A stretch of 64,000 bases of DNA from an uncultured Alphaproteobacteria bacterium (GCA_958267355.1 OY279575.1:41726-105725); one strand, 5' to 3'; shown: positions 3,026-61,500, numbered from the stretch's first letter. The notes: generated from the letters alone by a model not told the origin. A program made the numbers and translations.

Positions 3026-3130
3026 GCTGGAATTCTACCGATTCAAAAGTGAAAAATCCATAAAGAATTTAGACAAAAAGCGGAGTTTTCCACAGGGGAG
3101 GGGTGGTTAAGCAACTTGAAGGGGAGGGGT

Positions 3131-3222
3131 TAATTAAACTCCTCGGGGAAGTGGCGGTATAAGGAAAGTACGGGGTTGGCGGTGGCTTGGCCGAGGCCGC
3201 AGATTGAAGCGTAAGTCATCGC
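3131..3222 (-). pseudogene. Detached duplicate of the 3' end of the NuoE/F-like gene (last ~30 codons plus stop)
   Basis: Reverse strand translates AMTYASICGLGQATANPVLSLYRHFPEEFN*. The intact gene end at 4817..4908 reads VMADASICGLGQAAANPVLSLYRHFPEEFS*. By hand count about 81% of ~90 nt are identical, and the differences are mostly synonymous. Confidence 0.7.
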
Positions 3223-4717: not shown

Positions 4718-4816
4718 GAATCATTCTCCCTTCGTTCTGGCTGACCATACCACATTTTATTTTGATTCGGCTTATATAAACTTCTTAGGCAAAAATTTTT
4801 AAGCAAACTTTTCGGA

Positions 4817-6619
4817 TTAGGAAAATTCCTCAGGGAAGTGCCTATACAAAGACAGGACAGGGTTGGCGGCGGCTTGGCCGAGGCCGCAGATTGAAGCGTC
4901 TGCCATTACGGTGGCTAAGTCTTCTAGCAACTCTTTGTTCCAATCGCTTTGCAGTAGCAACTGTGAAATCTTTTCCGTGCCGTTGCGACACGGAGTGCAT
5001 TGTCCGCACGACTCGTCTTCAAAGAAGCGCATCAAGTTGCGCACTGCGGCGCGTAGATCATCTTGGTCTGACAGCACTACGACGGCACCAGAGCCGATGA
5101 AACAGCCGTGGGGTTGCAGGGTGTCAAAGTCTAGGGGTAGGTCAGCCAGGGAGGCGGGTAGAATGCCGCCTGAAGCTCCGCCGGGCAGGTAGCCGCGTAG
5201 TTTGTGTCCTGTTGCCATTCCGCCGCAGAATTCGTCTATCAGCTCGGTTAGGCTGATGCCAGCGGGAGCGCGTTTGACGCCGGGTTCGGCGACTCGTCCT
5301 GACACTGAGAAAAGGCGCAAGCCTGTGCGTTCGCGCCGTCCGTGGGAGGCAAACCAGCCGTCGGGCTGCTCTAAAATCTCAGGAAGCCACCACAGCGTTT
5401 CAACATTGTGGTTTAGAGTCGGCTTGCCCCACAGGCCGACTTCGGCGATAAATGGCGGACGGTGGCGGGGCAATCCGCGTTTGCCTTCAATGGACTCCAG
5501 CATGGCTGACTCTTCGCCGCAGATGTATGCGCCTGCTCCGCGTCTTACGACGAGCGGACAGTGTTTGTCTAATCCTGCTTTGCGTATTTCTGCCAGCTCA
5601 CGCGCCAGCAGGCTATGCAGCTCAGGATATTCATCGCGCAAATAGATATAGCCTGACTCACATCCTACTGCCCAAGCTGCAATCAACGCGCCTTCCAACA
5701 TACGGTGCGGAGTCTCGCTCAAGCAGTAGCGATCTTTAAAAGTGCCTGGCTCGCCTTCGTCGGCGTTAATCGTCAAGAGTGGAGGCAAGCCGTGTTTGTT
5801 TGCCGCATCGCGCACGGCTTGCCATTTGCGTCCTGCTGGAAAGCCTGCTCCGCCCAGTCCGCGCAAACCCGAGTCGGACAAACGCGCAATCATCGCTTCG
5901 GCTGTGTGCTTGCCTTGCAAACAAGCCCGTAGCAAGTTATATCCGCCTGCGGACTCGTAGGCGGCGAAGTCTTGTGCTTCTGCAGGAGCCGCTACATGAT
6001 GCACTCCGTGCACACCATTGCTGTGCTGTGCATCGCGGCTATTGCTGTGATTTGCGCTACCGCTATTGTTATTCCGTGCCAACGCGCTTGCTTTCTGCAG
6101 GACTTCTTCTGCTTTCCCTGCGGGGCAATTCTCGTGTCCGTAGGCAACAACAGGAGCGTCAGCACACCGCCCCATACAAGGCGCACGAACCACGCGCACA
6201 GTTTCGGGTGCATCGCGCTGTAAAGTTTCTAGCAGCGCGGCACTACCATTCATCTCGCAAGTCAGCGAGTCGCAGACCCGCAGAGTTAAAGCAGGAGCCG
6301 ACTCTCCGTCTTCTACGATTTCAAAGTGGGCGTAGAAGGATGCAACTTCGTATACCTCCGCCATGGGGATACGCAACAACTCGGCGAGCGCGACCAAGTG
6401 GCGGTTTTCGAGTTGTCCGTGTGCGTCTTGTATGCGGTGCAGGTATTCAATCAGCAGTGCGCGTTCGGGTGCTGTGTTTCCGAGCAGAGTCTGTATTTCT
6501 TGGCGGGCTTGCGGCTCGGTGTTGCGTCCGCGTGGAGCATGCAGGGCTTTGCGCCGTCCCGCCCCAGGGTGGATACGACGCGCCGTAGATGAACTGGCTT
6601 GGCTCACGGAAATCTCCAA
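4817..6619 (-). CDS. NAD-linked oxidoreductase, fused NuoE-like (2Fe-2S) and NuoF-like (FMN/NAD/4Fe-4S) domains; formate dehydrogenase beta / HoxF-like
   Basis: NuoE-like VASFYAHF..CDSLTC..CMGRC; NuoF-like GLRGLGGAGFPAGRKW and ESCGQCTPCRNG. A low-complexity insert (NNNSGSANHSNSRDAQHSNGVHGVHH) separates the domains. Confidence 0.8.
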   Translation of the reverse strand: MEISVSQASSSTARRIHPGAGRRKALHAPRGRNTEPQARQEIQTLLGNTAPERALLIEYLHRIQDAHGQLENRHLVALAELLRIPMAEVYEVASFYAHFEIVEDGESAPALTLRVCDSLTCEMNGSAALLETLQRDAPETVRVVRAPCMGRCADAPVVAYGHENCPAGKAEEVLQKASALARNNNSGSANHSNSRDAQHSNGVHGVHHVAAPAEAQDFAAYESAGGYNLLRACLQGKHTAEAMIARLSDSGLRGLGGAGFPAGRKWQAVRDAANKHGLPPLLTINADEGEPGTFKDRYCLSETPHRMLEGALIAAWAVGCESGYIYLRDEYPELHSLLARELAEIRKAGLDKHCPLVVRRGAGAYICGEESAMLESIEGKRGLPRHRPPFIAEVGLWGKPTLNHNVETLWWLPEILEQPDGWFASHGRRERTGLRLFSVSGRVAEPGVKRAPAGISLTELIDEFCGGMATGHKLRGYLPGGASGGILPASLADLPLDFDTLQPHGCFIGSGAVVVLSDQDDLRAAVRNLMRFFEDESCGQCTPCRNGTEKISQLLLQSDWNKELLEDLATVMADASICGLGQAAANPVLSLYRHFPEEFS

Positions 6620-7960: not shown

Positions 7961-7976
7961 GCCACCTGCGCCTTCA

Positions 7977-8330
7977 AGGACAAGACTAAACCAAGCTTTC
8001 TAGGACAAGATTAAAGCAAACTTTCTAGAACAAGATTAAAGCAGCTTTTTTAAGGCAAGTTTAAGCCGAGTCTTCTGCGACAAGTTAGAACAAGTTTTAC
8101 AGGTTAAGTTAAGCACAAATTTTCTGAACAGGTTTATACAAAACTTTTAAGGATAAGATTAAGCCAACTTTTCCATCAAGGACATAATTAAAGCAGCTTT
8201 TCTAAGGCGGGTTTATCAAACAAAAAAACAATTACAGATGAAAAAATAATTGCTAGCAAAAAAATAATTGCCAGCAAAAAACACTTGCCGATAAAGATTC
8301 CATCAAGGACATAATTAAAGCAGCTTTTAC
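7977..8330. repeat. Degenerate ~27-nt tandem repeat tract ending in two copies of the half-site ccatcaaggacataattaaagcagctttt
   Basis: Successive units such as ggacaagattaaagcaaactttcta / gaacaagattaaagcagctttttta / ggataagattaagccaacttttcca. Half-sites at about 8174-8202 and 8302-8330. Internal direct repeat aaaaaataattgcYagca x2. Confidence 0.7.
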
Positions 8331-10051
8331 GACAAGTGCTTGCGGGTGATCCGCATAAGTAGAGCGATTGGTAGTAATCCTGTTGCGACGATAAGCAAGG
8401 CGGGCAGGGCGGCATCGGCGAGTCGTTCGTCGTCGGCGAGAGACCAGGCTTGCACGGCGAGTGTTTCTACTCCGAAGGGACGAATGAGCAGAGTTGCGGG
8501 CAGTTCTTTTAGCACTTCTACGAAGACGATTAGTGCGGCGGTGAGCAGACTGGGTAGCAAGATGGGCAAGTGTACTGACAGCAGGGTTTGGAATTCTGTG
8601 CGTCCGAGTCCGCGGGCTGCATCGTCTAGGCTCGGACGAATGCGCACGAGTCCTGCGTCTATGGTTTCCAGTGCGATGGTGGAAAAGCGCACTAGATAGG
8701 CGAAGAGCAGACCGACGACGCTAAGGGTTAGCCACGAGATTTGCGAGTCCCAACCGAACCACAGCAAAATATGGTCTAAGCCGACGAAGACGGCGATGAC
8801 TCCGATGGCGATGACTGCGCCGGGTGTTGCGTATCCGAGTGACACGACTCGGGCGGCGAGTCTGCCGAGCGGATCGCCACTCTGCGGAGTTACCTGTGTT
8901 GCTCCCCGCCAGAAGGCGAGTGGGTCTGGCACGGCTGACGCTGCTCCACTGCGCAGGGCGTAGGCGATGAGCAAGGCAGGAGGCAAGATGAGCAGGGTAG
9001 CGGCGAGTCCTAGCGTGGCACTGGTGCGGGCGGCGGGGAGCAGATTTTCTATGACGAGCGGATCGTTCAGCCCTGTCCGCCAGGCGAGCCACAGCAGGGT
9101 CAGGGCGGGCAGGACAAATCCGAGCAGCGGAGGCAAGGCGCAGATGGCGGCGGCGGCGTAGGCTTTGCTGTTGCTGAGTCCGATGGCATTGGGAGCTTTT
9201 GAAGCCCGTCCAGCGACGAGCCGTTGTGGCTGTGCCAACTTTTCTGAAGCCATGAGCAAGGCTACCACTAACAAAAGCAGACACGACAGGCGGGCGGCGG
9301 CGGTTAGGTCACCGAAACCGAACCAAGCGCGGAAGATGGCGGTGGTCCAGGTTTGAACGCCGAGCAATTCTAGTGCGCCGTATTCGGCGAGAGTTTCCAT
9401 TAGTGCGAGTGCTACGCCAGCGACCAGAGCGGGACGGGCGATGGGCAGGGCGACTTTCCAAAACAGCGACCACGGAGATGCACCCAAGCACTGCGCGACT
9501 TCAAGCGTGTTGCGTCCTTGCCCAAGAAAGGCTTTGCGGGCGAGCAGATAAACATACGGATAGAGCGCGAGCGACAGCAAGCACACAGCTCCGCCAAGCG
9601 AGTGTAGCGGCGGCAAGACTTCTCCGTGCAGTTGAAAGATGCGGCGTAGAGCGTTTTGTATGGGCCCTGCTCCGTCTAGCAGCCACGACAAAGCCAGAGC
9701 CGCAATGTACGGAGGTACCGCCAAGGGCAGCACCAGCGTAACTTCCAACAAGCCGCGCAACGGGAAGCGATAGCGGGTCACCAACCAAGCGGGAGGTACC
9801 CCGAGCAACAGCACTCCACCAGCGACACCGAGTGCGAGCAGAGCTGTGTTGAGCGTCCAGAGCGGCAGTACGGTTTGCGTCAAGTGTGCCCAAGCTTGGC
9901 TTTCACTGTTGAGCGCGAGCACGACCACAGCGACCATCGGCAACGACAAGACTGCAGCAATTACGAGCGCAAGGTTTCGCAATCCCCGTGACCTTCGCCC
10001 CCGCGAGCGTACCTTCCCCCCCCACCACCTATAAGCAACTTCTGCTTGCAT
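8327..10051 (-). CDS. Fe(3+) ABC transporter permease (FbpB-like, duplicated transmembrane domain)
   Basis: 574-aa polytopic protein with two permease halves. Convergent with the binding-protein gene. Confidence 0.75.
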   Translation of the reverse strand: MQAEVAYRWWGGKVRSRGRRSRGLRNLALVIAAVLSLPMVAVVVLALNSESQAWAHLTQTVLPLWTLNTALLALGVAGGVLLLGVPPAWLVTRYRFPLRGLLEVTLVLPLAVPPYIAALALSWLLDGAGPIQNALRRIFQLHGEVLPPLHSLGGAVCLLSLALYPYVYLLARKAFLGQGRNTLEVAQCLGASPWSLFWKVALPIARPALVAGVALALMETLAEYGALELLGVQTWTTAIFRAWFGFGDLTAAARLSCLLLLVVALLMASEKLAQPQRLVAGRASKAPNAIGLSNSKAYAAAAICALPPLLGFVLPALTLLWLAWRTGLNDPLVIENLLPAARTSATLGLAATLLILPPALLIAYALRSGAASAVPDPLAFWRGATQVTPQSGDPLGRLAARVVSLGYATPGAVIAIGVIAVFVGLDHILLWFGWDSQISWLTLSVVGLLFAYLVRFSTIALETIDAGLVRIRPSLDDAARGLGRTEFQTLLSVHLPILLPSLLTAALIVFVEVLKELPATLLIRPFGVETLAVQAWSLADDERLADAALPALLIVATGLLPIALLMRITRKHLS

Positions 10052-10143
10052 TCCCTGCTAACCCCTAAACCTTGTCCCAACCCCCACCCCCCACTATAAT
10101 ACAAAACCCCACCCCCACCCCACCCCAACAGGAGAAGAGTCAA

Positions 10144-11319
10144 ATGAGTGAGACACAGGAAGGTGAAATAGGAAAAAATGAAGCCGCAAAAAACGAGCTT
10201 CAAAGCTTAGATTTAGACCTTACAGAACTGGTCACCTTTTTTGACAAGAAAGATGATAAAAGCCAAGGCCACGCGACTGCCTTGGTATCCATCTTTGGTG
10301 AGGAATTAGCGATTGCACTTCTACGTGTTTATTGCGAGGCACAAGGATACGGCTTTAAGGTATTAGAAAATCTGTGTAGCAGAAGAAAACAAAAAGGAAA
10401 TCGGTTAGACGCTTGGATTAGGGTTGATACGGAGAAGAAAGGCGGGCCTATCTATTATTTCCAAACAGAAATTAAAAATTGGAGTGCACACGCTATTGGC
10501 GGAGAAGACATAGACCTTTGCATAAAAGACAACAAGTGGAATGAAGTAAGATTTGAAAGATTTAAAAGTGAATTTAGGGCTTGCCATATTCCTGAGGGAA
10601 GTGAAAAATTGAAAGACATTGAGTTAAAGCGTGGAAAGGGTTTCACAGAAGAAGAGAAAAAAGAAAATATATGCGAATGGAAAAGAATTTTAAGAAGCAG
10701 CAAAAGTAAAATTTCTTACGAACCAAACAACCGTGCCTTAGGAAAAGTGATTTTAAATATGACAGAAGGTTTCAATAGGCGTAAACCTTTCATAAAAGAA
10801 TATGAAAAAGAATATACAAAGGAATATAGTTTCTCTGTAAGAAAGAAGAAAGGTAATCTTGTAGAAAGAGGGAAGTTCGTAAAAAAGAAAGGAGATGATG
10901 TCATAGAAGAAAGAAATTTATCTGAAGAAAAATCAGTTAAAATATGTCCGCTAATTTGCTACTGGTTTGCACTTTATCCGCGCCCAGAAGTAGGCGAATA
11001 TAAAGAAGCAATTGAATATGATGATATAGATGAATTTTTCCATTCAGATGAATTCTTTAACTTAAAGCTTCTCGGCAAGAACGATAGCAAGCTTCCCAAG
11101 AAAGGAAGGCGTGTGAGTGAAGATTTTGATCGGCTTTATGTTTTTTCTATGTCTAGCTTTGCAAGAAATTTGTTAAAGGGTGATTACCCTGAAATTGTAG
11201 TTACAGATTCCAAAAAAATTGAGATTAAGATGAAAGTTTTAGGGAAGCGACAAAAGTGGATTAACAAAATCTTCCCTGAAACCGACAAAGAGCCTAAAGA
11301 CCAAAGCCCAACCGAATAG
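10144..11319 (+). CDS. Lys/Glu-rich hypothetical protein with a PD-(D/E)xK-like nuclease motif
   Basis: ATG at 10144 is preceded by AGGAGA; the track ORF starts at 10072 inside a C-run. Motif: GEELAIAL ... RLDAWIRV ... YYFQTEIKNW (E...D...ExK). AT-rich. Confidence 0.5.
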   Translation: MSETQEGEIGKNEAAKNELQSLDLDLTELVTFFDKKDDKSQGHATALVSIFGEELAIALLRVYCEAQGYGFKVLENLCSRRKQKGNRLDAWIRVDTEKKGGPIYYFQTEIKNWSAHAIGGEDIDLCIKDNKWNEVRFERFKSEFRACHIPEGSEKLKDIELKRGKGFTEEEKKENICEWKRILRSSKSKISYEPNNRALGKVILNMTEGFNRRKPFIKEYEKEYTKEYSFSVRKKKGNLVERGKFVKKKGDDVIEERNLSEEKSVKICPLICYWFALYPRPEVGEYKEAIEYDDIDEFFHSDEFFNLKLLGKNDSKLPKKGRRVSEDFDRLYVFSMSSFARNLLKGDYPEIVVTDSKKIEIKMKVLGKRQKWINKIFPETDKEPKDQSPTE

Positions 11320-11329
11320 GGGGTAATCA

Positions 11330-11900
11330 CCCCCCTAACTGCCAAAGCTGGCTCGCCTTGGGGGAGCGTGAGATTAGTGGGATGATCTGGTCCCATTATG
11401 GAGACGAAGACCCACCGAGTGCCCGTAGGGCACGAGCGCGAGCGTAGCGGGCACCTTGCGGTGCGGCATTCGTGCCAGCCTTTGTTGCTTCCTCCAACCG
11501 CCACGCCCCATAGTTTCAGTGGAGGGTTAATTGAGCCGAAGCCCCTAATGGGGGGAGCGTAAGATTAGTGGGATTATCTGGCTCCTATTGTGGAGACGAA
11601 GACCCACCGAGTGCCCCGCGTGGCGAAGCTTGCCGAGCCACGCCAACGCGTCCGTTAGGACGCACAAAAAAGGGGCACGAGCGCGAGCATAGCGGAGTGA
11701 AACGAGCGGAGCGAAGCGGACGCTCGCGCTTGCGCGAGCAAAAGCACCCGCAAGGGTGCGTAAATTAAATGTTGCGAGAAAGCCCAACACTTACCCATTT
11801 TTCTGCGGCTTAGGAATCAGGGTAGTTAGAAGACGGGGAAGTAGCGGCTTGCCCAGCGGGGCAAAAGTGTCCGCAAGGGCACGTAAAAAGCAGGGGGAAT
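11330..11900. repeat. Non-coding tract (~570 bp) of GC-hairpin modules, including two tandem units (11361-11450 and 11552-11695)
   Basis: Starts with cccccctaactgccaaagctg. The units share ggggagcgtRagattagtgggatKatctgg...gagacgaagacccaccgagtgccc[loop]gggcacgagcgcgagc. Many perfect short stems with 3-4 nt loops, e.g. gcaccc-gcaa-gggtgc at 11744-11759. Confidence 0.8.
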
Positions 11901-19987: not shown

Positions 19988-20000
19988 AACGCGAAAGAAT

Positions 20001-20137
20001 AAAAAAGCTGCTTTGCAATTGTCCTTGATGAATTTTTATGAATTGTTTTTATCTCTCGTTGGGAGATTAATTCCCTACCCCTGAATAGGAATATTTCTTA
20101 ACCCTGAAAAAGCCGCTTTGCAATTATCCGCAAACGA
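20001..20137 (+). repeat. ~133-bp dispersed intergenic element, copy 1
   Basis: aaaaagctgctttgcaattgtccttgatgaatttttatgaattgtttttatctctcgttgggagattaattccctacccctgaataggaatatttcttaaccctgaaaaagccgctttgcaattatccgcaaa. Near-identical to 20248-20380 and 24019-24152. Confidence 0.9.
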
Positions 20138-20247
20138 ATTTTTTGTGTGAATTATATTTAAGCAGTGATAGATTCAGCTTTCGTGCTATTAAACATATCT
20201 ATAAGACAAGCCTAAAGACTCAAACCATAAAACCACATAAAAGACAC

Positions 20248-20380
20248 AAAAAGCTGCTTTGCAATTGTCCTTGATGAATTTTTATGAATTGTTTTTATCT
20301 CTCGTTGGGAGATTAATTCCTTACCCCTGAATAGGAATATTTCTTAGCCCTGAAAAAGCCGCTTTGCAATTATCCGCAAA
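20248..20380 (+). repeat. ~133-bp dispersed intergenic element, copy 2
   Basis: Near-identical to copy 1, about 110 bp downstream of it. Confidence 0.9.
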
Positions 20381-20484
20381 TCCACTTCGTGAGAAAAGAA
20401 TTTTCTAGCCTGTTCTGTAAAAATAGAATTTTAACTCCAAGCAGAAAAAACTTGCCAAAAAAGCCAATTTACAATTTGTCCGCA

Positions 20485-24011: not shown

Positions 24012-24018
24012 CAGGGTT

Positions 24019-24152
24019 AAAAAAGCTGCTTTGCAATTGTCCTTGATGAATTTTTATGAATTGTTTTTATCTCTCGTTGGAAGCTTAATTTCCTACCCCT
24101 GAATAGGAATATTTTCTAGCCCTGAAAAAGCTGCTTTGCAATTGTCCGCAAG
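24019..24152 (+). repeat. ~133-bp dispersed intergenic element, copy 3
   Basis: Near-identical to 20001-20137. Lies between the convergent nadK and uvrB genes. Confidence 0.9.
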
Positions 24153-24234
24153 CAAAACTTGGTTTGCGGATTAACTTTACTTAGCTGTATAGAATTATCT
24201 TACCTTGCGGTTTGCGGATTCACTTTACTTGGCT

Positions 24235-35556: not shown

Positions 35557-35759
35557 GGTATCTCTCCTTATAGAGCGGGAATTGCCCGCTGACTGCCAAA
35601 AACCGCCGAAAGCTCTGGAAAATGCGAAAATATCCCCCCAGCGGCGTTATATACTACTTATGTTCTCTTTTTGCTCTCTTGTCAAGAACATTTAGCAAAC
35701 TTATTTTTAACGCTATAACCCTTTGAATTAAAGCCCATTCCCCCCGAATCCCCACCACT

Positions 35760-36000
35760 TTTCCACAAGACAGGCAGAACACCCCCTACAGGACAAGCCC
35801 TGCGGGGCAAGCCGCGTATCCCCCGTCTTCGTCTCAAAAATGGGCAGTGGCTCAATTAGCCCCCCCCATTGAAATTATGGGGCGTGGCGGTTTGGCTCAA
35901 TTAGCCCTTCATTGAAACTATGGGGCGTGGCGGTTGGAGGAAGTAATAACGCTTGGCACGAATGCCGCACCGCAAGGTGCCCGCAAGGCGGACGCAAGGT
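35760..36000. repeat. GC-hairpin module tract, inverted relative of parts of 11400-11860, with an internal 44-bp tandem duplication
   Basis: 35893-35975 is the reverse complement of 11455-11537 (ggctcaattag...ggggcgtggcggttggaggaag...cacgaatgccgcaccgcaaggtgcccgc). ggctcaattagcc..attgaaaYtatggggcgtggcggtt occurs twice in tandem. Confidence 0.8.
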
Positions 36001-36001
36001 G

Positions 36002-36931
36002 CTAGGGGGCTTGGGATTTGGGTTTTGGGGGGTAGAGTTTTGGGTTAGGGATATTACCTCCGTCTACATAGATGGAGCTTGGTTCTTTCTTAGGCTTGTC
36101 GGGTTTCTTTTCGTAGGGGTTGCTCCAATCCATGCCGGCGTAGCGGTCTTCGGCTTCTACACGCAGCGCAATCTTCTTCTCGTGTGAAGAACTATTATCT
36201 ATCAAACGGCGGGTAGAACGGTAGTCTTCGGTCTCGCTGTACTCTTTGATATGTTCGTCAGGGGATAGATACGCCTGAGCTCGGTCGATTAGCTCTGCCA
36301 TAGTCGCGTCATCAACGATTTTCTTTCCCGCTACAACTTGTTCTACCAGCTCGCAGAACTGGGTCAGCTCGCGGATCATCTCGGTGCGGCGTATCGCTTC
36401 TTCTCGCCGCAGGTTTCGGCGGGGGGCTATGGTTTGTTTTTTATCAAAGGTTTCAGGCTCTACGAGCTTTCCGCGGGTGCGCATATTCTCTAAGGCTTCA
36501 GTTAGCCTGTTCATCGTCTCGGTCGTAATCTCTTGGTGGTGTTTGCGCTCTTGGTCGGTTAAACCTTCAGGCATAGGATTGAGCCGCAATAACTCTAGGT
36601 TAAACATTATGAGCTGGCGTTCATCGCGTCTTCGTTGGGCGTTAAAAGCCCTGCCTAAAGCCCGTTCCTTGGCGTTGGTTTCGTCTTCTTCCTGTATGGA
36701 GCGTTGGAGGGAAAGCAGGGCTTTAACCTCGTCTTCTAGCTTGTCGTTGAGCTGGGGCAGGAGTTGGGCAAGGTTAGCCCTGCGGACTTCAGCACTTTTG
36801 TCCGCCTGCCCTGCGTAGTGGTTGGCTAGGGATTCCGTCAGCAGTTCGGGGTCAAGGGCGGATAGGTATTGGCGCACTTCCTGCAGCTTGGCGGCTGTCG
36901 TTGGCTGGTCGGCTGGGCGAGTGCTGTGCAT
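36002..36931 (-). CDS. Hypothetical charged/coiled-coil protein
   Basis: 309-aa ORF with no recognisable motif. A C-run leader (ccccaaacccccaacc) lies just upstream of the ATG on the coding strand. Confidence 0.5.
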   Translation of the reverse strand: MHSTRPADQPTTAAKLQEVRQYLSALDPELLTESLANHYAGQADKSAEVRRANLAQLLPQLNDKLEDEVKALLSLQRSIQEEDETNAKERALGRAFNAQRRRDERQLIMFNLELLRLNPMPEGLTDQERKHHQEITTETMNRLTEALENMRTRGKLVEPETFDKKQTIAPRRNLRREEAIRRTEMIRELTQFCELVEQVVAGKKIVDDATMAELIDRAQAYLSPDEHIKEYSETEDYRSTRRLIDNSSSHEKKIALRVEAEDRYAGMDWSNPYEKKPDKPKKEPSSIYVDGGNIPNPKLYPPKPKSQAP

Positions 36932-37099
36932 GGGGTAATCCTTCGGTTGGGGGTTTGGGGGCTAATAGAGTTGCGAAATCTCCTATATAGGAAATGAGCC
37001 ATTTTCAGGCAGATTCAAATTTTTTACGGATTTTTGGGGCAAAAAAAGAGATAAATCGGGCGCAAATCTAGACTCACAGCCAAAAAATAAATTTAAAAA

Positions 37100-37897
37100 T
37101 AAATTTCCTGTGGCCTTCCCACCCATCCCCCCCAAGGTTTGCTTCGCGTCCTACGGACGCTCGCAACCCTTGACCCCCCTTTGCCCTGTGCCTGCCTACG
37201 GCAGACACAGCCCCTAGGGGGGTGTTAATTAGATAGTCCCCCTCTATATACAAAAAAAACAAAAAGAAAAAATGTAGAGAAATAAGGCCTGTTGCCTTCG
37301 CGCCCATAGGGGGGTGGCTAATTAATCAACCGTGTTCTTAAAAATAAAAAAATAAGATTAGTAATGTCTACGATCAATCAGCAAGCTTCGCCACGCGTGC
37401 CCGCTCGGCACTTCGTGCCTTCGCGCCCCTAGGGGGGTGAATTCCCTAATCAGCCCATATTTCTAAAAACTAAAAAAACATAAAGAAAGAAAATAAAAAA
37501 TCTTCGTAGGGTAAATTTTGAAACCTCTACCCACCCATCCCCCCCTAACTTTGCTTCGCAAAGTTAGACCCCCCTTTGCCCTCGCCACACTTCGTGTGGC
37601 TCGCCCCTAGGGGGGTGTTAATTAGATAGTCCCCTCTATATAAAAAAGAAAAACATAGGGAGAGGTAAAGAGAATAAAAGCAGAGAATAAAGACAGCAAA
37701 CCAAAGCGGGCGACTGCCCCCCTGTAAGGGGGGTAGGAGACAGCTTTGGCAGTTAGGGGGGAATATTCTCTACTTTTAAAAAAACGCCCCTGCGGGGCGT
37801 TCCCTCGCGCACTTCGTGCGCGCCCACCCCACCCCCCAAAATTTGCTACGCAAATTTTGACCCCCTCCGTCCCGAGGGGGTAATAGCTCTTGCATTT
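37100..37897. repeat. ~800-bp non-coding array of GC-hairpin modules separated by A-rich spacers
   Basis: cccacccatccccccc-[hairpin]-gaccccc modules at 37118, 37529 and 37823. Palindrome-containing box gcccctaggggggtg at 37211, 37303, 37425 and 37604. A ctaactgccaaagc-type element (reverse orientation) at 37701-37761. Confidence 0.85.
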
Positions 37898-39427
37898 CTA
37901 GGGGATTGTTGTTTTGTCCTCTGCTTTCAACGCGGCCTCCTGTTCTTTTATTTCTCGAAATAGTCTATACGCTCGGATGAGAGAATAAGCCAGAAAAGGA
38001 GACGCAATGAGAACTGTTAGAAGTGCTCCAACGACTGCTCCGATAAAAGCTTCATTAAAAAGCAACACAGAAAATCCGATAAATGCTCCCATAAGAGCCA
38101 TATAGATAATCCAATAGGGAGCTATAATTAGGGTTGCTGTGAGAGTGAAGCCAAGAGGTAATCTAAAGGCACTAGGAAAAGCCCCACGGAGGACTGTGCA
38201 GAAAATTCCTATAAGTGCTCCGACAAAAGACCCGAAAGGGATTCCGTGAAAAGCTTCGAGAAAAGAACCATTGAAGAGAGAGGCAATCAATGCGCCAATG
38301 AAAGCACCAATATAAATTCCAATGAAAGAACCAAAAATAAGTCCAAATACGTTCACTCCCATAATCTTGAGAAAATCAGAAGGAGCGAAAGGAAGAACCA
38401 TAATGGCTCCCGCAAGAGCTCCGATAGTGGCTCCGATTAAAGCTTCAAAAAGAACTTCCGAAAGAACTTCAAGAATAGCTCCAGAAACAGCAAAGATTAA
38501 CACTCCAAAAATAGCTCCAGAGAAAGCCCCAGAAGAAAGTCTAAGGAGAGCTTTATCATCAATGTCATAAATACTATAAGGTCTAAACATTTCAACAAGA
38601 AATCCTATCAAAGCCCCAAAGGGAGCTCCATAGAGAGCTACACGAAAAGCACCTTCAAGACCTCTATCAAGAGCATTCCGATCAAGTCCTAAAGGCAAAG
38701 CCGCATTGAGACTTAAAAAGAGAGCCCCAAAGATAGACCAAAAGATTGCCGAATTTATTATTCCCCTTAAATTCGTTCTATAAAGATAATCAGAGCTGTT
38801 GGCTTTGGTAACGATCCTTTCGATTGCCTCACCAAGAATTCCAAGAATGGCCCCTAGGAAAGCTCCAGTAAGAGTTGCTATTAAAATTCCGATAGGAGCT
38901 CCATTAAAGTTCGCAATAATTATTCCTGAGAGTGCACCGTAGAAAGCCGCTACGATAACTCCAAAAAAAAGATGTAAAAAAGGTTGCGGAAAAGCCTTTT
39001 TAGAAGGGCTCTTGAAAAAATAATCGAAAAGCCAGTAACAAAGCCATGCAGAAATCGCAATAAATATTCCTTTTATAGCTCCAGCAGACGCTCCGAAAAA
39101 AAGCGCAATGAGAATTCCAGAAACAGCCATAAAGATAGCCCCAATAGCTGACGCTGAAAAAATGAAACTAGTGAATGAAGGTTTTTTCTTAGAGGGGTCT
39201 TCGAACTCAATTTCAAAAGCAAAGACAATTCCTACAAAAACACCAAAAATTGCACCCAATGAAGCCCCTAGGGCATACAATCTACGATAATTTTCCCACG
39301 CCTTAAAAATTTCTGTAAAAATCTCTTCTACCCAGTTCGTAGCAAAAATTCCGATGAGCCAATTCGTGATGAAAATTCCAGTAAGAATCCCAGCAATAAT
39401 TCCTCGGAGGATTATCTTGAGGCGCAT
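37898..39427 (-). CDS. Polytopic membrane protein built of reiterated glycine-zipper (GxxxGxxxG) segments
   Basis: Likely start is ATG at 39427 (MRLKIILRGIIAGILTG). Many segments like GAFLGAILGILG, GAPFGALIGFL, GSFIGIYIGAFIGALI and GAFIGAVVGALL. AT-rich. The upstream part of the track ORF is translation of a G/C-run leader. Confidence 0.7.
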   Translation of the reverse strand: MRLKIILRGIIAGILTGIFITNWLIGIFATNWVEEIFTEIFKAWENYRRLYALGASLGAIFGVFVGIVFAFEIEFEDPSKKKPSFTSFIFSASAIGAIFMAVSGILIALFFGASAGAIKGIFIAISAWLCYWLFDYFFKSPSKKAFPQPFLHLFFGVIVAAFYGALSGIIIANFNGAPIGILIATLTGAFLGAILGILGEAIERIVTKANSSDYLYRTNLRGIINSAIFWSIFGALFLSLNAALPLGLDRNALDRGLEGAFRVALYGAPFGALIGFLVEMFRPYSIYDIDDKALLRLSSGAFSGAIFGVLIFAVSGAILEVLSEVLFEALIGATIGALAGAIMVLPFAPSDFLKIMGVNVFGLIFGSFIGIYIGAFIGALIASLFNGSFLEAFHGIPFGSFVGALIGIFCTVLRGAFPSAFRLPLGFTLTATLIIAPYWIIYMALMGAFIGFSVLLFNEAFIGAVVGALLTVLIASPFLAYSLIRAYRLFREIKEQEAALKAEDKTTIP

Positions 39428-39965
39428 TGGTGAAGTCTCCTTGCTTTTGGGGATACTAACAAAAAGCCCGTCTAAACGGGGGATTAGGGTGGCGTTTGGG
39501 GGGGTGGTAGGTGGGGTAGGGGGTTTGGGCGGTCTTTTCGGGGGTTTTGGGCAGGAATTTGGGGGTTGGGGCTTGACATAACCCGTCAAAGGGCTAGGAT
39601 GGCGGGGCTTCCTTTTGGGAGGCTTTAGCGAAAAGCGAAATGAAGCACAGGGGCTGTGGGCCTGCGGGCTGGCTCGCCTCATATGCTTTTTTTGTGTGTT
39701 TTTTGTCGCTTTCGCGCGCGCCAGCTCTTGACCATTGTACATAACGGAGAAGATACGTGGGCAGCGATCTGTAGAGCCGTTGAGTCGTAACACTTTCGGG
39801 TGCGGCGACTTGGCAAAAAATATGGGTCACGCAACGCGTATTTTCGTAAGATTTTTACGCAAATATCACGTTGCTTATGTTGCGGACGGCTTTGTCGTCC
39901 GCAGCGAAGCGAGCGTGACCTGTCAAACGTTTGTTTGCTCGTATCCAACGAGTAAGCCAACAATC

Positions 39966-41468
<1,503 letters not shown>

Positions 41469-41723
41469 GGGGTTGGGTATTCTGGGGTTTGGCTATGCTT
41501 GGGTCTTGACTGACTCGGGCTTGCTTGAGTTTTGATTGACTTGAGCTTTTAGCTTGAACTTTGGCACCTGACTTTAAAGAATTGCTGACTTTGTCTTACT
41601 TGAATGGCTTGGTGCTTTTTACGGAGCACTTGGGTCTTTTTTGTGAGACGAGCGAGGCATAAAAAACCTGCTCGACAGTTCGCTGTCCTCGTACCTTCTC
41701 CGTTGTGCCTACTCAAGACCCCC

Positions 41724-41753
41724 AAAAGCCGCCCCCCAAGGCGGCTTTTCTTT
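41724..41753 (+). terminator. Intrinsic terminator-like hairpin plus T-run downstream of 16S
   Basis: aaaagccgcc-ccccaa-ggcggcttttctttg. Nearly the same hairpin as the one after 5S. Confidence 0.6.
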
Positions 41754-41883
41754 GTCTCGTCGGGGGCAATTTGGCTCTACCCAGTCAAATTGCTGAAAAT
41801 TAGCCAATTTACGCTGAATTTCTGTGTGCAGCCCCTACATATGGGGGTTTAACATTAGAGTGTTAACAAATCAGAAGGGCAAA

Positions 41884-41962
41884 TAAGTAACATTTTTCCT
41901 CCTTTTTGTTACTTAATCTCTTGTAAGTAACATTTATGTTAGTTAAATTCATTTAAGTAACA
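41884..41962 (+). promoter_or_regulatory. Four copies of the 9-mer TAAGTAACA (three direct, one inverted) upstream of the Fic gene; putative operator array
   Basis: Direct copies at 41884-41892, 41925-41933 and 41954-41962. Inverted tgttactta at 41907-41915. Confidence 0.5.
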
Positions 41963-41991
41963 AAAACCACGAAATTCGTTAGTTAGCCAAA

Positions 41992-43176
41992 ATGGACAAA
42001 AAACACAAAAAACAAAGAATTGGGAATTATGTAAGGAGCTCTGCCTCTGACACGGTGAGCTATCTGGCTTACATTCCCAGCCCGCTCCCACCAGACCCGC
42101 CACTGGATATGGCAGATCTTGCTCCTCTTTTAGAGCGAGCCCATATCGCCATCGGGCGCTTGGACAGTATGATCGATCCACTATCAGACTTTTCTTCGGC
42201 TTTGCGCACATACTTTATCCGTAAAGAAGCTGTTTCATCCTCTCAAATTGAAGGCACGCAATCGACCCTCTCTGATGTATTGGTGTATGAAGCAGGTGAC
42301 AAAAAATTAAACACGCCTATTGAGGACGCTATAGAAACTTTACGCTATGTTTATGCTATGGAATATGGATTAAAACGCATAAAAGATATTCCCATATCGC
42401 TACGTTTGATTAGGGAAGTTCATAAAAAATTAATGACTGATACACGTGGTCAAAATAAGCAGCCTGGTGAATTTCGAAAAAGCCAAAACTGGATTGGCGG
42501 GTCAAAACCAAGTAATGCCGATTTTGTGCCGCCGCCACCGAACCATGTGATGGATGGGTTAGATAATCTAGAAAAATTCCTCAATGACGAAAGAACGGAT
42601 CTGCCTGTTTTAGTCAAGGCTGCGATCACGCATGTACAGTTTGAAATTATTCACCCATTTCTTGATGGAAACGGCCGTTTAGGCCGATTGCTTATTATTT
42701 TCATATTGTGTGCGGAAGATATTCTTAAGCAACCTGTTCTAGGTTTAAGTTCATATTTAAAAACCAACCATAAGGGTTATTACAATCATCTCCAATCTGT
42801 TCAGGAAAAGGGCGATTGGGAGGCGTGGATTGAATTTTTCCTAACAGGTGTCATTGAAACAGCTGAACAGGCAATAGAGACTATGCAGGCAATCCGAACA
42901 CTCTTTGCGGCAGATAATGATAAAATAAGCAAACGCGGAAGATCAGCAGCAAGCGTTTTTAAGATACATGCCCACTTGGAAAAATATCCAATGACTACGA
43001 CACGGAAAATAAAAGAAGACACAGGTCTGTCGTTGCCGACTGTCCTGCGCGGATTAGAAACTCTGAAAACTTTAGATATTGTTAAAGAACCTGAAGTCAA
43101 ATCGAGAAACAGGGTCTTCATTTATAAAAAATACCTTTCTCTTCTAAACGAAGGCACAGAGCCTTTGCCAAGGTAG
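41992..43176 (+). CDS. Fic family protein (AMPylase-type) with N-terminal inhibitory motif and C-terminal wHTH-like region
   Basis: HPFLDGNGRLGR Fic motif. SSQIEG matches the (S/T)xxxE(G/N) auto-inhibition helix. Confidence 0.85.
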   Translation: MDKKHKKQRIGNYVRSSASDTVSYLAYIPSPLPPDPPLDMADLAPLLERAHIAIGRLDSMIDPLSDFSSALRTYFIRKEAVSSSQIEGTQSTLSDVLVYEAGDKKLNTPIEDAIETLRYVYAMEYGLKRIKDIPISLRLIREVHKKLMTDTRGQNKQPGEFRKSQNWIGGSKPSNADFVPPPPNHVMDGLDNLEKFLNDERTDLPVLVKAAITHVQFEIIHPFLDGNGRLGRLLIIFILCAEDILKQPVLGLSSYLKTNHKGYYNHLQSVQEKGDWEAWIEFFLTGVIETAEQAIETMQAIRTLFAADNDKISKRGRSAASVFKIHAHLEKYPMTTTRKIKEDTGLSLPTVLRGLETLKTLDIVKEPEVKSRNRVFIYKKYLSLLNEGTEPLPR

Positions 43177-43309
43177 GAGGTGGGGCAGACAAAAGAAAAA
43201 ACCGACACTAGGTGATTTTTGCTATCGATGCGCCAAAATGAACCAAAATGAAAAAGCCCTCCCTTAAGACGATCGGCTTTTTATTTAGCCCCCCAACCCC
43301 CTCGAGCGA

Positions 43310-43482
43310 AGCCCGCGGGGGCGTTTTTTAAGAGTAGAGAATATTTACCCCCCCCTAACTGCCAAAGCTGTCTCCTGCCCCCCCGCGCAGATCGTCTTGC
43401 GTCACGCGGAGCGGATAGCAAGCGAGATGCGCAAAAGTGTTGCGCAAGCGACACGAAAAGGCGGGGCAGTCGCCACCTTTGG
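43310..43482 (+). repeat. ctaactgccaaagc-type hairpin element with an expanded loop, preceded by a terminator-like hairpin
   Basis: Reads gcccgcgggggcgtttttt, then agtagagaatatt..cccccctaactgccaaagctgtctcctgccccccc, then about 78 nt of nested hairpins, then ggggcagtcgccacctttgg. Confidence 0.8.
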
Positions 43483-43601
43483 GGCAAAGTATGGGGGTTA
43501 GGCAGGCGTGAATCGGCTTGATTTCCGCCATTAATTCTACCCTTGCGGGAGGTACATATTTCGTCTTTAATTTAGAACCATTACTACTTTAGGGGGGATA
43601 T

Positions 43602-45947: not shown

Positions 45948-46000
45948 TAGAGAAAATGGGTATCTTTCCGCACGGGCGGTTTCTCACGATAAGGAGGGCG

Positions 46001-46930
46001 ATGAAAATGGGGCGTAGAAAATTTTTAAAGTCTTTAAAACGCTCCTTGAAGAAGGCGGCGAAGGAGGTAGAAGACTCGGACGAATTCCAAAAGCTCAAGA
46101 AGTCCGCGAAAGACTTGGAAGACTCAGACGAGTTTCAAGAGTTTAAAGAGACCGCGAAGAATGTTAAGTCCTCCGAGGATTTGAAAAAGCTCAAGCAGGC
46201 GGGCAAAAGGCTTGAAGACTCCGAGGCGGCAGAAGAGTTCAAGCAATCCGCCAAGAATGTAGAAGACTCAGAAGAATTCCAAAACCTAAAAGAAATGGTC
46301 AAAAACATTGAAGACACCCAAGAGTTCAAAGAGCTCAAAAAGACTGCCAAAAATCTACAATATCTCTACGATTTGCAGAGGCTTCAGGCGACGATCAAAG
46401 ATTTTGAAAACACGGCTGAAGTGCGGGGGCTTAGAAGGGCGGTCAAGGATATTAAAGCCACCAAAGAATTCAAGGAGCTTAAAGAAATCGCCAGAAATCT
46501 TAAAAACCTTGACGACTTGCGACGGCTTCGTGATGCTGTCAAAAAGCTTGAAGACTCTGCGGCGGTGCAGAAGCTTAAAGTTGCTGCCAAAAAGGTTGAA
46601 GATTCTGCAGAAGTGCAAAAGCTGAAGCAGGTTGCCAGTCGGGTTGAGGACAGCCAAGAGTTTCAAAAGTTTAAAGCGATTGCCAAAAACCTTGAAAGCT
46701 TTGACGATCTGGAAAAATTACAAGCGGCGGCGAAAACTCTTGAGGACTCTGCTGAGGTCCAGGGGCTTAAGCAGGTGGCGAAAGATATAGAAGACTCCAG
46801 CGAAGTGCAAGAGCTGAAGCAAGCCGCTAAAGATCTTGAAGACTCTGCTGAAGTGCAAGAAATTAAACAGGCTGCGAAAAGCCTTGAAGACTCTGCTGAG
46901 GTGCGAGAGTTGAAAGAAAGAGTGCAGTGA
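46001..46930 (+). CDS. Protein made almost entirely of ~18 copies of the same 16-aa acidic repeat
   Basis: AAGGAGG lies 5 nt upstream of ATG at 46001 (track ORF starts 45956). Repeats read EDSDEFQKLKKSAKDL / EDSAEVQELKQAAKDL and similar. Confidence 0.7.
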   Translation: MKMGRRKFLKSLKRSLKKAAKEVEDSDEFQKLKKSAKDLEDSDEFQEFKETAKNVKSSEDLKKLKQAGKRLEDSEAAEEFKQSAKNVEDSEEFQNLKEMVKNIEDTQEFKELKKTAKNLQYLYDLQRLQATIKDFENTAEVRGLRRAVKDIKATKEFKELKEIARNLKNLDDLRRLRDAVKKLEDSAAVQKLKVAAKKVEDSAEVQKLKQVASRVEDSQEFQKFKAIAKNLESFDDLEKLQAAAKTLEDSAEVQGLKQVAKDIEDSSEVQELKQAAKDLEDSAEVQEIKQAAKSLEDSAEVRELKERVQ

Positions 46931-56859: not shown

Positions 56860-56891
56860 CTTCTAATCCCCCCACTTTTACCCCCCACTTT

Positions 56892-56918
56892 AAAGCCGCC
56901 CCCACAGGCGGCTTTTTC
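56892..56918 (+). terminator. Intrinsic terminator after 5S
   Basis: aaagccgcc-cccaca-ggcggctttttcc. Confidence 0.7.
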
Positions 56919-56945
56919 CTTTAATCGCGGTAGGTTGTTTTCTAA

Positions 56946-57326: not shown

Positions 57327-57467
57327 ATGAATTGGAACCAAACCTCTGCTGAAGCTTTCATAGGTGGCGTCATCGGTGCTCTTATCGGTTCTTGCGGTGG
57401 AGTCCTCACCGTGATTATCGTTCGAGATCGCTCTGGTTTGAGGCTTTGGTCTAGGGGTTTCCCTTAA
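57327..57467 (+). CDS. 46-aa glycine-zipper membrane peptide (below the ORF-track cutoff)
   Basis: My translation: MNWNQTSAEAFIGGVIGALIGSCGGVLTVIIVRDRSGLRLWSRGFP*. AAGGAA lies upstream. Confidence 0.35.
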   Translation: MNWNQTSAEAFIGGVIGALIGSCGGVLTVIIVRDRSGLRLWSRGFP

Positions 57468-57527
57468 AACGAATCGCTTTGATTTGTGTTTAAATAGAGC
57501 AGAGTAGAGTCACCAAAGGGGAAAGCC

Positions 57528-58400
57528 ATGGCGAGCTTGGAGCGTATCCAAACCCTAGAAACTGCGTCTAGGGCTAAGAAAAAGCCTGAATGGGCGGACA
57601 AGGTGTATTTCGGCGATTGTCTTGAGGTGATGCAGGATTTGCCGAGCAACAGCATTGATCTGATTGTCACTTCGCCTCCCTATGCTGACGCGCGCAAGCA
57701 CACCTACGGCGGAGTGCATCCCGACAAATATGTAGACTGGTTCTGCGAGCGGGCCGAGGAGATGCATCGCATATTGTCTCCGACGGGTTCGTTTATTCTC
57801 AACATCAAAGAAAAGGCCCGCGAGGGAGAGCGACACACTTATGTTTTAGATTTGATTCTCGCTTTAAAGCGCGAGGTGGAATTTCGTTGGGTAGAAGAAT
57901 ATGTATGGCACAAGACGACGGCGGCGCCGGGCAAGTGGCGCTACCGCTTCCGCGACTCGTGGGAGCGGCTTCTGCACTTTTCTAAAACCCCTGACTTGAA
58001 GATGAATCAGGACGCGGTGAAAGTTCCTGTTGGCGATTGGACTGCCAAGCGGCTTGCCAATATGAGCGAGCGTGATAGAAGCCGCCAAGAGTCGGGCACG
58101 AAGTCAAAGGTTGGACGGCGGATTGCGAACTGGGAGGGCAAAGCTACGGTGTATCCGACGAATGTTTTGCATAGGTCTCCTGTGGCGCATAACACGGGGC
58201 ACAGTGCGGCGTTTCCTGAGTGGCTGCCTGATTTTTTTATTAAGCTCTTCACCGACGAAGGAGATATTGTCTTAGATCCGTTTCTTGGTTCGGGCACTAC
58301 CTACCGCGTTGCGAAGGCTTTGAATCGCGTTCCTGTTGGCATAGAGATGAACCAAGAAACCAAAATGGACTTAGGCGATGTCCCTCTCTTGGATCGATAA
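57528..58400 (+). CDS. DNA methyltransferase, beta class with SPPY motif (probably N4-cytosine)
   Basis: IVTSPPYADARK (motif IV) lies upstream of VLDPFLGSGTT (motif I). Confidence 0.8.
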   Translation: MASLERIQTLETASRAKKKPEWADKVYFGDCLEVMQDLPSNSIDLIVTSPPYADARKHTYGGVHPDKYVDWFCERAEEMHRILSPTGSFILNIKEKAREGERHTYVLDLILALKREVEFRWVEEYVWHKTTAAPGKWRYRFRDSWERLLHFSKTPDLKMNQDAVKVPVGDWTAKRLANMSERDRSRQESGTKSKVGRRIANWEGKATVYPTNVLHRSPVAHNTGHSAAFPEWLPDFFIKLFTDEGDIVLDPFLGSGTTYRVAKALNRVPVGIEMNQETKMDLGDVPLLDR

Positions 58401-59043
58401 CGAAATTTTACAGTCTCATATAGAAACGCTTATTGAGTCTGCACAAAATTCTTTAGCGCAGGCGCAGGAGCGGCGGCATAGCCATGTGGTAGATCCGTTT
58501 TCGTCTTTATCCATTGCGGTGGCGGCTCAGGTTAAGGACTCTTCTGAATTAAACAGGCTGCAGGATACAGAAGCTGCTTTACGCGGTATGAGCAACGCTC
58601 TTGGAGCATTTCATCAAGGCGTTTTAGGCTCTATTGAAGGTTGGAAAAACCACGATGCGGGCTATGACTTAGAGTGTCCGAGTAGAAAAATTTTGGCGGA
58701 AGTAAAAAACAAGCACAACACGATGAATGCAGCCACACGACGCGATGTAGAAGGTGAATTGAATACAGCCCTCCGTCAAAAGTCTGGTTCTTGGACGGGG
58801 TATCTGGTAATTATAATTCCTAAGAAGCCTGAACGCTACGAAAGGCATATAGAGGGTAAAGCAAGTGGCGTGAAAGAAATTGACGGAACTTCGTTCTACT
58901 ACTTGGCGACAGGAGACCCAAACGCCATCCACGATCTTTTTGACTTCTTGACTGAATACCTGATTACAAACCAGCAGTTGCCAGAAGAAATTGCCACGCA
59001 CTGCCGAGCCATCCTAGAAACTAGCCTCCCCCCAAGAGCTTAA
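58378..59043 (+). CDS. Putative type II restriction endonuclease (PD-(D/E)xK)
   Basis: Overlaps the methylase stop by 23 nt. GYDLECPSRKILAEVKNKHNT fits a D...ExK catalytic motif. Confidence 0.6.
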   Translation: MSLSWIDNEILQSHIETLIESAQNSLAQAQERRHSHVVDPFSSLSIAVAAQVKDSSELNRLQDTEAALRGMSNALGAFHQGVLGSIEGWKNHDAGYDLECPSRKILAEVKNKHNTMNAATRRDVEGELNTALRQKSGSWTGYLVIIIPKKPERYERHIEGKASGVKEIDGTSFYYLATGDPNAIHDLFDFLTEYLITNQQLPEEIATHCRAILETSLPPRA

Positions 59044-59052
59044 TCACTCTAC

Positions 59053-59120
59053 ACCCCCCCCTAACTGCCAAAGCTGTCTCGTGCCCCCCCTTACAGGGGG
59101 GGCAGTCGCCCGCTTTGGTT
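59053..59120 (+). repeat. ctaactgccaaagc-type hairpin element, compact form
   Basis: cccccccctaactgCCAAAGCtgtctcgtgCCCCCCC-ttaca-GGGGGGGcagtcgcccGCTTTGGttt. Same architecture as 37701-37761 (reverse) and 43350-43482. Confidence 0.85.
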
Positions 59121-59180
59121 TGGGTGTTTTGCGGGGCGCATTCGCTCATCAAGCCATCAAGCCATTAGCCCATCAACGCA

Positions 59181-61151: not shown

Positions 61152-61378
61152 AGTCTTTACTCCTAATGTTTGTGTGTGCCTGTGCGGTTTGTCTAGTATA
61201 CACCATTGAATTGACTTTCTGCCTATGCCTTGTGCCCGCCCACCTTAAGTTGCTCTTGTAAGCTATTGTGCGCACTACTGTTTCGTACCCGTCCGTTGCT
61301 ACTTATCGCCCCCAACCCCCAACTCGGGCGGCTTTTTTGTACAAAACACCTCTTACTTACATTCTATTTTTTGAGAGA

Positions 61379-61500
61379 GGCTCTATTACCCCCTCGGGAC
61401 GGAGGGGGTCGCGTTGCCGAAGGCAACGCGGGGGGTGGGGCGGGCGCACTTGCCGCAGGCAAGTGCGAGGGAACGCGCCCGCAAGGGCGCAAAAAAGTCC
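61379..61500 (+). repeat. GC-hairpin module of the ggggggtggggYggg-core type, inverted relative of 37785-37890
   Basis: See finding: same flanks and core as 37785-37890, with three hairpins replaced by different perfectly paired stems. Confidence 0.85.

Follow-up and report, generated by a model that had tools for sequence, protein, structure and literature searches.

Genes and repeats of the window

The window analysed here is a 64-kb stretch of DNA drawn from contig hifiasm.ptg000096c (1,859,045 bp) of the ENA metagenome assembly ERZ19433661. At 10144..11319 on the + strand it carries orf391, a gene of GC 0.36 whose product has no family match and contains a D...ExK-like motif. The gene is preceded by a promoter-like site, TTGTCC-17-TATAAT (10072..10100, +), which is conserved in all three strains compared below, and by a (CCCCA)n-type C-run tract (10107..10126, +), which stands directly 3′ of the −10 box, ahead of the ribosome-binding site, and has a strain-dependent repeat number. 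On the 3′ side follows a mosaic repeat tract (11320..11900, +) that comprises a stop-codon hairpin (11319-11334), the 5′ arm of a repeat termed module A (11330-11359), two copies of module B (11360-11424 and 11551-11616), module E (11451-11545), and small hairpins with GCAA, GTAG, GTTA, or TTGC loops.

Besides the window, the comparison drew on a second locus of this genome and on loci totalling about 150 kb from two sister strains, s103 (hifiasm-meta.s103.ptg000112c, 1.87 Mb) and s104 (s104.ptg000113c, 1.90 Mb), both assembled from the sample that yielded the query strain; these loci were mostly aligned pairwise, DNA piece by piece. For s104, contig atg000083l encodes the same PhoX protein (P0127), and the PhoX relatives named in databases come from Rhodospirillales-type alphaproteobacteria, at about 65% identity. 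In a cluster look-up, orf391 and orf509 were strain-private at 90% identity, Fic and Eco47II were each common to one other strain besides the query, and the core proteins adjoining variable genes were common to all strains.

The slot of orf391, between permease and IAT, holds a 353-aa gene in s103 and genes of 303 aa and 222 aa in s104, where an extra membrane-protein gene is found besides a shortened tract. The 353-aa and 303-aa proteins are 47-49% identical to orf391 and share motifs with it. By these alignments, orf391 is a hypervariable allele at a fixed locus, and neither an unrelated insert nor the foreign cassette that a first-pass annotation of this DNA had proposed. Its motifs (RLDAW ... 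YYFQTEIKNWSAHA) suggest a strongly diversifying nuclease of the PD-(D/E)xK type. Upstream, conservation across strains reaches the start codon and includes the promoter-like site, with divergence starting at or just after the C-run tract; because that C-run leader lies within conserved upstream DNA and differs only in repeat number, it belongs to the backbone and not to a cassette. Downstream, similarity between the query and s103 resumes about 12 nt past the stop codon with the opening C-run of module A, and the tract itself changes with the strain, from two units of about 190 nt in the query to one in s103 and only the last ~150 nt in s104. The counterparts of orf391 lie at L003 4859-5920 and L004 4997-5908, in flanking DNA that is nearly identical between strains.

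Hairpin tracts adjoin strain-variable genes

Perfect GC-rich hairpins, defined by a stem of at least 6 bp and a loop of 3-7 nt, number 40 in the window, and 23 of the 40 fall in intergenic DNA, which amounts to 9.1 kb (14%). They form clusters at 11319-11864, 35574-35980, 37146-37881, 43289-43482, 59082-59104, and 61388-61490. Runs of at least five C or G are also distributed unevenly, with 70 in the 9.1 kb of intergenic DNA vs. 56 in 54.9 kb of coding DNA. Each tract is a patchwork of repeated modules, which recur from locus to locus. The tract 3′ of orf309 (35780..36001, −) contains two copies of module E and small hairpins. Between orf309 and orf509 (37100..37897), tandem units of about 200 nt with CCCCTAGGGG palindromes are accompanied by module A (37701-37764, −) and module C (37783-37881). 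The Fic 3′ tract (43289..43500, +) opens with a canonical terminator hairpin and T-run (43300-43325), followed by a module A (43348-43482) whose tip holds a 70-nt nest of hairpins, while module C, here four hairpins plus CCCGCCCCACCCCCC, lies 3′ of the helicase gene (61379..61500, −).

The first-pass annotation had placed such tracts 3′ of low-GC genes. The clusters themselves were confirmed, but low GC does not predict them. No tract follows either TPR gene, the superinfection-immunity genes, the 570-aa methylase, or orf109, all of them low in GC. Of the genes listed as low-GC examples, 36002-36931 is not one (0.53), and the Eco47II endonuclease has a GC content of only 0.46. In the window the predicting criterion is strain variability. 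Among long intergenic regions (at least 150 nt), GC hairpins occur in 8 of 10 that adjoin variable genes vs. 0 of 10 between core genes (Fisher p = 7e-4), and tracts are found only beside genes that differ in presence or sequence between the sister strains. Core-gene intergenic regions of similar length (150-500 nt) lack GC hairpin modules and carry a distinct AT-rich 133-bp repeat. In the core-core gaps at 19994-20409, 24012-24181, and 7974-8342, an AT-rich repeat of 133-170 bp is present together with tandem units of 25-27 nt.

C-run leaders, described earlier for several of these genes, were scored as two or more runs of at least four C on the coding strand within 80 nt upstream. By this measure they precede 5 of 17 variable genes vs. 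1 of 21 core genes (p = 0.07), and G runs likewise precede core units, namely the 16S promoter, the 23S promoter, and PhoX. The leaders are patchy and are part of conserved flanks, and a general C-run leader is not supported. A doubled cccctcccc box reported at 3093-3130 proved to be a single, weak CCCCTCCCC.

One reading of the tracts is that they act as transcription terminators or insulators, protecting core genes and rRNA against transcription that runs on from newly acquired genes. Canonical hairpins with T-runs are indeed found in some tracts (43300-43325, 37783-37801 on the − strand, 41724-41749, and 56892-56915), and tracts separate accessory genes from PhoX, the rRNA genes, or IAT. 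However, only a few hairpins combine a GC stem with a T-run on the transcribed strand, as an intrinsic terminator would, and most have no T tail on the strand of the gene. Terminator-like sites are not enriched over shuffled sequence (16 vs. 11.7 ± 3.3, and 3 vs. 3.5 ± 2.3), which leaves the expression insulation put forward in the first-pass annotation unsupported, and module A comes after an existing canonical terminator and would therefore be redundant in this role. We consider the terminator reading highly improbable. RNA runs yielded repeat fragments and divergent alleles only, with no usable transcript ends at the tracts.

Variable slots and their cargo

Five slots between conserved genes differ in content among two or three sister strains of the one sample. 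Apart from permease/IAT, these include the slot between RecA and 16S, compared between the query and s103 only, in which orf309 and orf509 (37898..39427, −; GC 0.41) stand in the query and an HNH endonuclease, a C5 methylase, and two small ORFs on the other strand stand in s103. In the slot between qNOR or tRNA-Ala and 23S, the query encodes orf155 and a methylase, s103 encodes MT-A70, MunI, and three ORFs, and s104 encodes a 545-aa methylase and a UvrD-like helicase. Between 5S and PhoX, orf109, a methylase, and an Eco47II-type endonuclease in the query correspond to a 692-aa gene, a methylase, and a 206-aa gene in s103 and to six small ORFs in s104. The slot between SBP_bac_3 and PhoX contains helicase alleles in the query and s103, and three unrelated ORFs in s104.

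The cargo is mostly of defence type, with three restriction-modification pairs, SoFic, GmrSD, the nuclease-like orf391, UvrD-like and GajB/HelD-like helicases, and a GNAT toxin pair. The SoFic-type Fic gene (41992..43176, +; PADLOC E = 3.7e-114) lies between 16S and 23S. Mobility genes were not seen. As the first-pass annotation had noted, the 64 kb hold no integrase or transposase: Pfam finds no such domain on any window ORF of at least 100 aa, and none is present in the gene tables of the ~150 kb of sister-strain loci.

Several features of the surrounding genes were observed alongside. The rRNA operon (39966-56859) is split by about 12 kb of protein genes, in the order 16S, SoFic, four superinfection-immunity-type genes, tRNA-Ile, qNOR (on the other strand), tRNA-Ala, orf155, methylase, 23S, and 5S; 23S has its own promoter-like site. 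In s103, 23S directly follows tRNA-Ala, with the variable genes on the far side of the tRNA gene. In-frame 48-nt tandem repeats (motif ...LEDSEE.QELK...) at 43770-44297 and 46052-46915 form much of a 781-aa and a 324-aa protein, beside superinfection-immunity domains. Elsewhere in the window, an IceA-type endonuclease and a methylase, absent from the sister strains, lie between 81%-identical copies (3127-3219 and 4814-4906) of the last ~93 nt of a NuoE/F-like gene; the pair represents a restriction-modification insertion in which a long piece of the target gene's end has been duplicated.

Structure and distribution of module A

Module A is a composite hairpin of 70-180 nt, made up of a C-run, TAAC, TGCCAAAGCTGTCTC, a variable tip, and GGGGCAGTCGCCNNCTTTGGTTTG. 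A consensus from the alignment of 15 copies gives a 5′ part of 5-13 C, TAAC, and TGCCAAAGCTG(T/G)CTC(C/G)T(G/A)C(C/G)CCC, with GGGGCAGTCGCCNNCTTTGGTTTG as the 3′ part, and the tip is CTTACAGG, a GTGCTGGACGCAC hairpin, or the 70-nt hairpin nest. As single-stranded DNA it is predicted to form two stems, CCAAAG/CTTTGG and GCCCC/GGGGC, separated by an unpaired loop of about 9x9 nt and capped by the variable tip, with z-scores of −1.7 to −4.5; the sequence of the unpaired loop is better conserved than the stems. The simple form (59054..59124, +) reads C8-TAAC-TGCCAAAGCTGTCTCGTGCCCCCCC-TTACA-GGGGGGGCAGTCGCCCGCTTTGGTTTG and is present at its site in all three strains, where homology stops at the end of the C-run. 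The C-run is C8 here (59054-59061) and C13 in an s104 copy (L129 6676-6688), and the repeat number of the (CCCCA)n tract at 10107-10126 varies as well; these differences look like slippage at homopolymer tracts.

Module A has sharply defined ends, beyond which the sequences on either side sort into unrelated classes. The copies are scattered in either orientation, with 12 of 17 no more than 180 nt downstream of a co-oriented gene and the other 5 facing gene starts. At some loci module A stays in place while neighbouring genes change, in either orientation, and it is therefore not simply a site carried by cassettes.

Searches outside the lineage found no counterpart. The 22-nt 3′ arm gave one match in JGI metagenome contigs, within an ORF and without the other arm, and hence no true copy. 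A scan of genome contigs with a 16-nt pattern returned only chance matches in unrelated organisms among the matches listed, and Rfam reported nothing on the tracts at the gathering threshold; the E-value threshold added only a sub-threshold whalefall-1 match, at 16.7 bits vs. a cut-off of 37.

Strain similarity ends at module A and at C/G runs

At five junctions, the ends of module A match the points at which strains diverge to the base. In the PhoX 3′ flank, the three strains are alike from the PhoX stop codon to module A and split exactly at the end of the C-run into three gene sets. In the SBP_bac_3 5′ flank, s103 and s104 likewise diverge at the end of a module A, and the joint in the orf391 3′ flank lies at a module A end as well. 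Conserved flanks are 98-100% identical up to the borders.

The remaining case is a gene unit that occupies two loci. The methylase and the Eco47II-type endonuclease (57430..59043, +) have their own promoter-like region, and the unit starts at CGCTCTGGTTTGAGG. Copies about 98% identical, module A included, are found in the 5S/PhoX slot of the query and at a different locus in s104, beyond a conserved SBP_bac_3...S8-peptidase block. The block common to both copies begins with CGCT(C/T)TGGTTTGAGG, which in s104 is directly 3′ of another module A, and terminates at the 3′ end of its own module A, so that the unit is bordered by the end of the preceding site and the end of its own. CGCTYTGGTTTG is common to both joints. 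Strain alignment had been named as the check on the cassette idea, and it did bring out cassette-sized differences with borders in the modules, at the PhoX 3′ and SBP_bac_3 5′ flanks and at this unit.

The s104 locus is an array in which S8, a partial module A, GmrSD, module A, the methylase/Eco47II unit, and module A follow one another with all copies co-oriented. Upstream of GmrSD in s104 (L129 2790-2910), far from the rRNA genes, lies part of the 5S 3′ end together with its C-boxes and a terminator, which points to recombinational shuffling of segments between these loci.

Further borders coincide with C/G-run boxes that adjoin the promoter or terminator of a conserved unit. In the RecA 5′ flank, the conserved border (35778) is just after the box CCCCCCGAATCCCCACCAC. 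A G-run tract, which is a C-run leader on the strand of orf509 (39470..39571, +), ends at a conserved-DNA border directly before the 16S promoter TTGACA (39573), and another border lies directly before the 23S promoter-like site. Strains diverge directly after two C6 boxes and the 5S terminator (56868..56921, +), and in the PhoX 5′ flank a CCCCCAACCCCC box (61309..61320, +) separates the conserved PhoX promoter region from strain-variable DNA. Of eight borders scored, seven have a C/G run of at least 5 no more than 15 nt away (binomial p = 1.6e-4 with the background set at 0.22, the value for all intergenic DNA, and p = 8.5e-3 with a stricter 0.40). The border in the qNOR 5′ flank has neither module nor run.

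Could the modules simply accumulate at such places? As selfish repeats of the REP/BIME/MITE type, they would gather where insertions are tolerated, for instance at gene ends and in long stretches between genes where the DNA is newly acquired or changes quickly, with no part in gene movement and the coincidence with borders as a by-product. The gain and loss of whole modules in tracts between strains, the nesting of hairpins within the tips of other hairpins, and the restriction of module A to this lineage would all be expected of such elements. This reading accounts for module turnover and nesting but not for the joints: five independent gene-content borders coincide with module A ends, and one gene unit travels with its module A. 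The module-free core intergenic regions also speak against it, as does the lack of a target-site duplication, which together with terminal inverted repeats marks a MITE, at the flanks of the 15 aligned copies. We think it distinctly unlikely.

The base-exact joints, and the unit that takes its module A along, also agree with a site-specific system resembling integrons, in which module A would be an attC-like site, folded as single-stranded DNA, at the 3′ end of each cassette. The recombinase would then be unlinked or be the host XerC/D, and cassettes would insert into module A copies already in place or into secondary sites across the chromosome. Consistent with this, the mobile unit consists of its genes and one right-hand module A, with the left border abutting the previous module A and CGCTYTGGTTTG at both joints; the s104 array is co-oriented; most module A copies (the 12 of 17 noted above) lie shortly downstream of a co-oriented gene; the predicted fold has two paired boxes, a conserved unpaired loop, and a highly variable tip, with 13 of 15 copies reading GTT at the 3′ joint; and defence and toxin-antitoxin genes are typical cargo of chromosomal integron cassettes. 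Several observations run the other way. Of 15 copies, only 8 have AAC in the 5′ box, and the R box pairs imperfectly. Module A occurs singly at scattered places and in both orientations, with five copies facing gene starts, the cassettes bear their own promoters, and at the PhoX and SBP_bac_3 sites module A is conserved backbone. No integrase was found in the 64 kb or the sampled sister loci, and Alphaproteobacteria are reported to lack integrons (bioRxiv 10.1101/2022.02.06.479319). On balance we regard an integron-like origin of the joints as unlikely. We also doubt its fuller version, in which module A would be the site of a chromosome-wide system that moves defence cassettes among dispersed single docking sites by means of an unlinked, possibly novel recombinase; if true, it would place a cassette system in a class reported to have none.

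A dispersed gene family next to module A

Together with a promoter and leader of about 170 nt, orf309 (36002..37110, −) forms a unit that is dispersed over the 1.86-Mb query genome in at least five near-identical copies; the leader includes the C-run GCCCCCAAACCCCCAAC. At 90% identity the family has 59 members across strains, and only 11 clusters were found among 1.8 billion proteins. It is lineage-restricted. A family member is downstream of module A at 5 of 5 loci examined. Copies at 36002-37110 of the window, L007 5001-5930, L009 5001-5927, and L129 7557-8495 each have the same promoter and C-run leader.

The predicted fold of orf309 is all-helical, at moderate confidence (pLDDT 69), and the family has no invariant Tyr, His, or Ser. 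It is therefore not an obvious candidate for a missing recombinase. It could be an accessory factor of an integron-like cassette system.

A model for cassette exchange

The tracts are pieces of a lineage-private repeat mosaic of small GC hairpins, C/G-run boxes, and module A. In the window this mosaic occurs only at the edges of slots between conserved genes, and co-occurring sister strains differ in the content of those slots. A gene unit with its 3′-side module A behaves like an exchangeable cassette, with the two ends of module A as the joints. The cassette layout is supported within limits, as orf391 is allelic, C-run leaders are patchy, and terminators are not enriched; the cassette idea of the first-pass annotation is partly supported, in the sharper form of strain-variable defence slots that are joined at one hairpin module.

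We lean, at slightly better than even confidence, towards exchange by general recombination. Under this model the general recombination of the cell would perform the exchange, and an enzyme encoded by the element would be unnecessary. Crossovers would fall both in the conserved genes that flank a slot and in the dispersed modules, the latter serving as portable homology, and illegitimate joins would arise at the ends of hairpins and at C/G runs. The parallel would be the minimal mobile elements of Neisseria with their flanking mosaic repeats, as these are thought to move. The modules may promote exchange rather than merely mark its places.

Some of the evidence counts against general recombination. 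With conserved arms of only about 35 and 24 nt, module A offers little length for efficient homologous recombination, and the left joint of the methylase/Eco47II unit in the query genome has only 12 nt of similarity. In addition, sharp ends and a loop more conserved than its stems are more typical of a site recognised by a protein. No crossover inside a module A was found, and the tip of the Eco47II-linked copy in the window matches neither candidate parent.

If the module A joints hold genome-wide, this population shuffles its defence genes by way of one hairpin module, without visible mobile-element machinery. Three complete, nearly identical genomes from one sample would then be a clean natural system for the turnover of defence islets, for which general recombination at structured repeats and a site-specific enzyme still to be found are the candidate routes. 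Such a genome-wide result would also test integron-like cassette logic outside the groups known to bear integrons.

Comparison with known systems

REPs are 20-40 nt long with a conserved 5′ tetranucleotide, occur in hundreds of copies, and flank the gene for RAYT, a transposase; this proposed enzyme is encoded far from most of them by a single-copy gene. To our knowledge, they do not bound gene-content polymorphisms. Like REPs and BIMEs with RAYT in enterobacteria and Pseudomonas, the modules described here are non-coding palindromes arranged in mosaics with a preference for gene 3′ ends, and small hairpins with GCAA and GTAG loops are present in the tracts. Unlike a REP, module A is a composite of 70-180 nt with a conserved unpaired loop.

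In the attC sites of integrons, an unpaired spacer separates two paired boxes and the terminal structure varies; AAC/GTT is the defining core (PMC5027507). The architecture of module A is analogous, while its spacing departs from the canonical one (PMC5027507). As with integron cassettes, including those of CALINs, which are arrays or single attC sites lacking an integrase, one or more genes are followed by a structured 3′ site, joints coincide with the end of the preceding site, arrays keep to one orientation, and the cargo comprises defence and toxin-antitoxin genes. The AAC/GTT core of the attC R box (RYYYAAC ... GTTRRRY) is only partly present: the 5′ side reads (T/A)AAC in 8 of 15 copies and AAT, AAG, CAT, or CAC in the rest, and the 3′ GTT of 13 of 15 copies occurs as GTTTG, which does not fit GTTRRRY. 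Unlike in integrons, neither an integrase nor an attI platform is in view, copies are scattered in both orientations, and units have their own promoters.

The closest likeness is to the minimal mobile elements of Neisseria, in which different whole-gene cassettes stand between two conserved genes and are incorporated by homologous recombination (PMC3082526). As in these elements, with their NIMEs/dRS3 and Correia elements, slots between conserved genes hold strain-specific whole-gene cassettes, here in five slots, of which that of orf391 departs from the pattern by holding divergent alleles of one gene and not different genes. Restriction-modification cargo is common to both, mosaic repeats stand at the edges, and mobility genes were not seen in the window or the sister loci; homologous recombination would be the shared route if our preferred model is correct. 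The systems differ in that borders here are base-exact at the ends of one hairpin module and not inside the conserved flanking genes, in that one unit has also moved to a different slot, and in that the repeats are unrelated in sequence and the host is an alphaproteobacterial symbiont with a small genome. To call the system undescribed as a concept, as the first-pass annotation did, is thus too strong, since the Neisseria elements embody the same idea.
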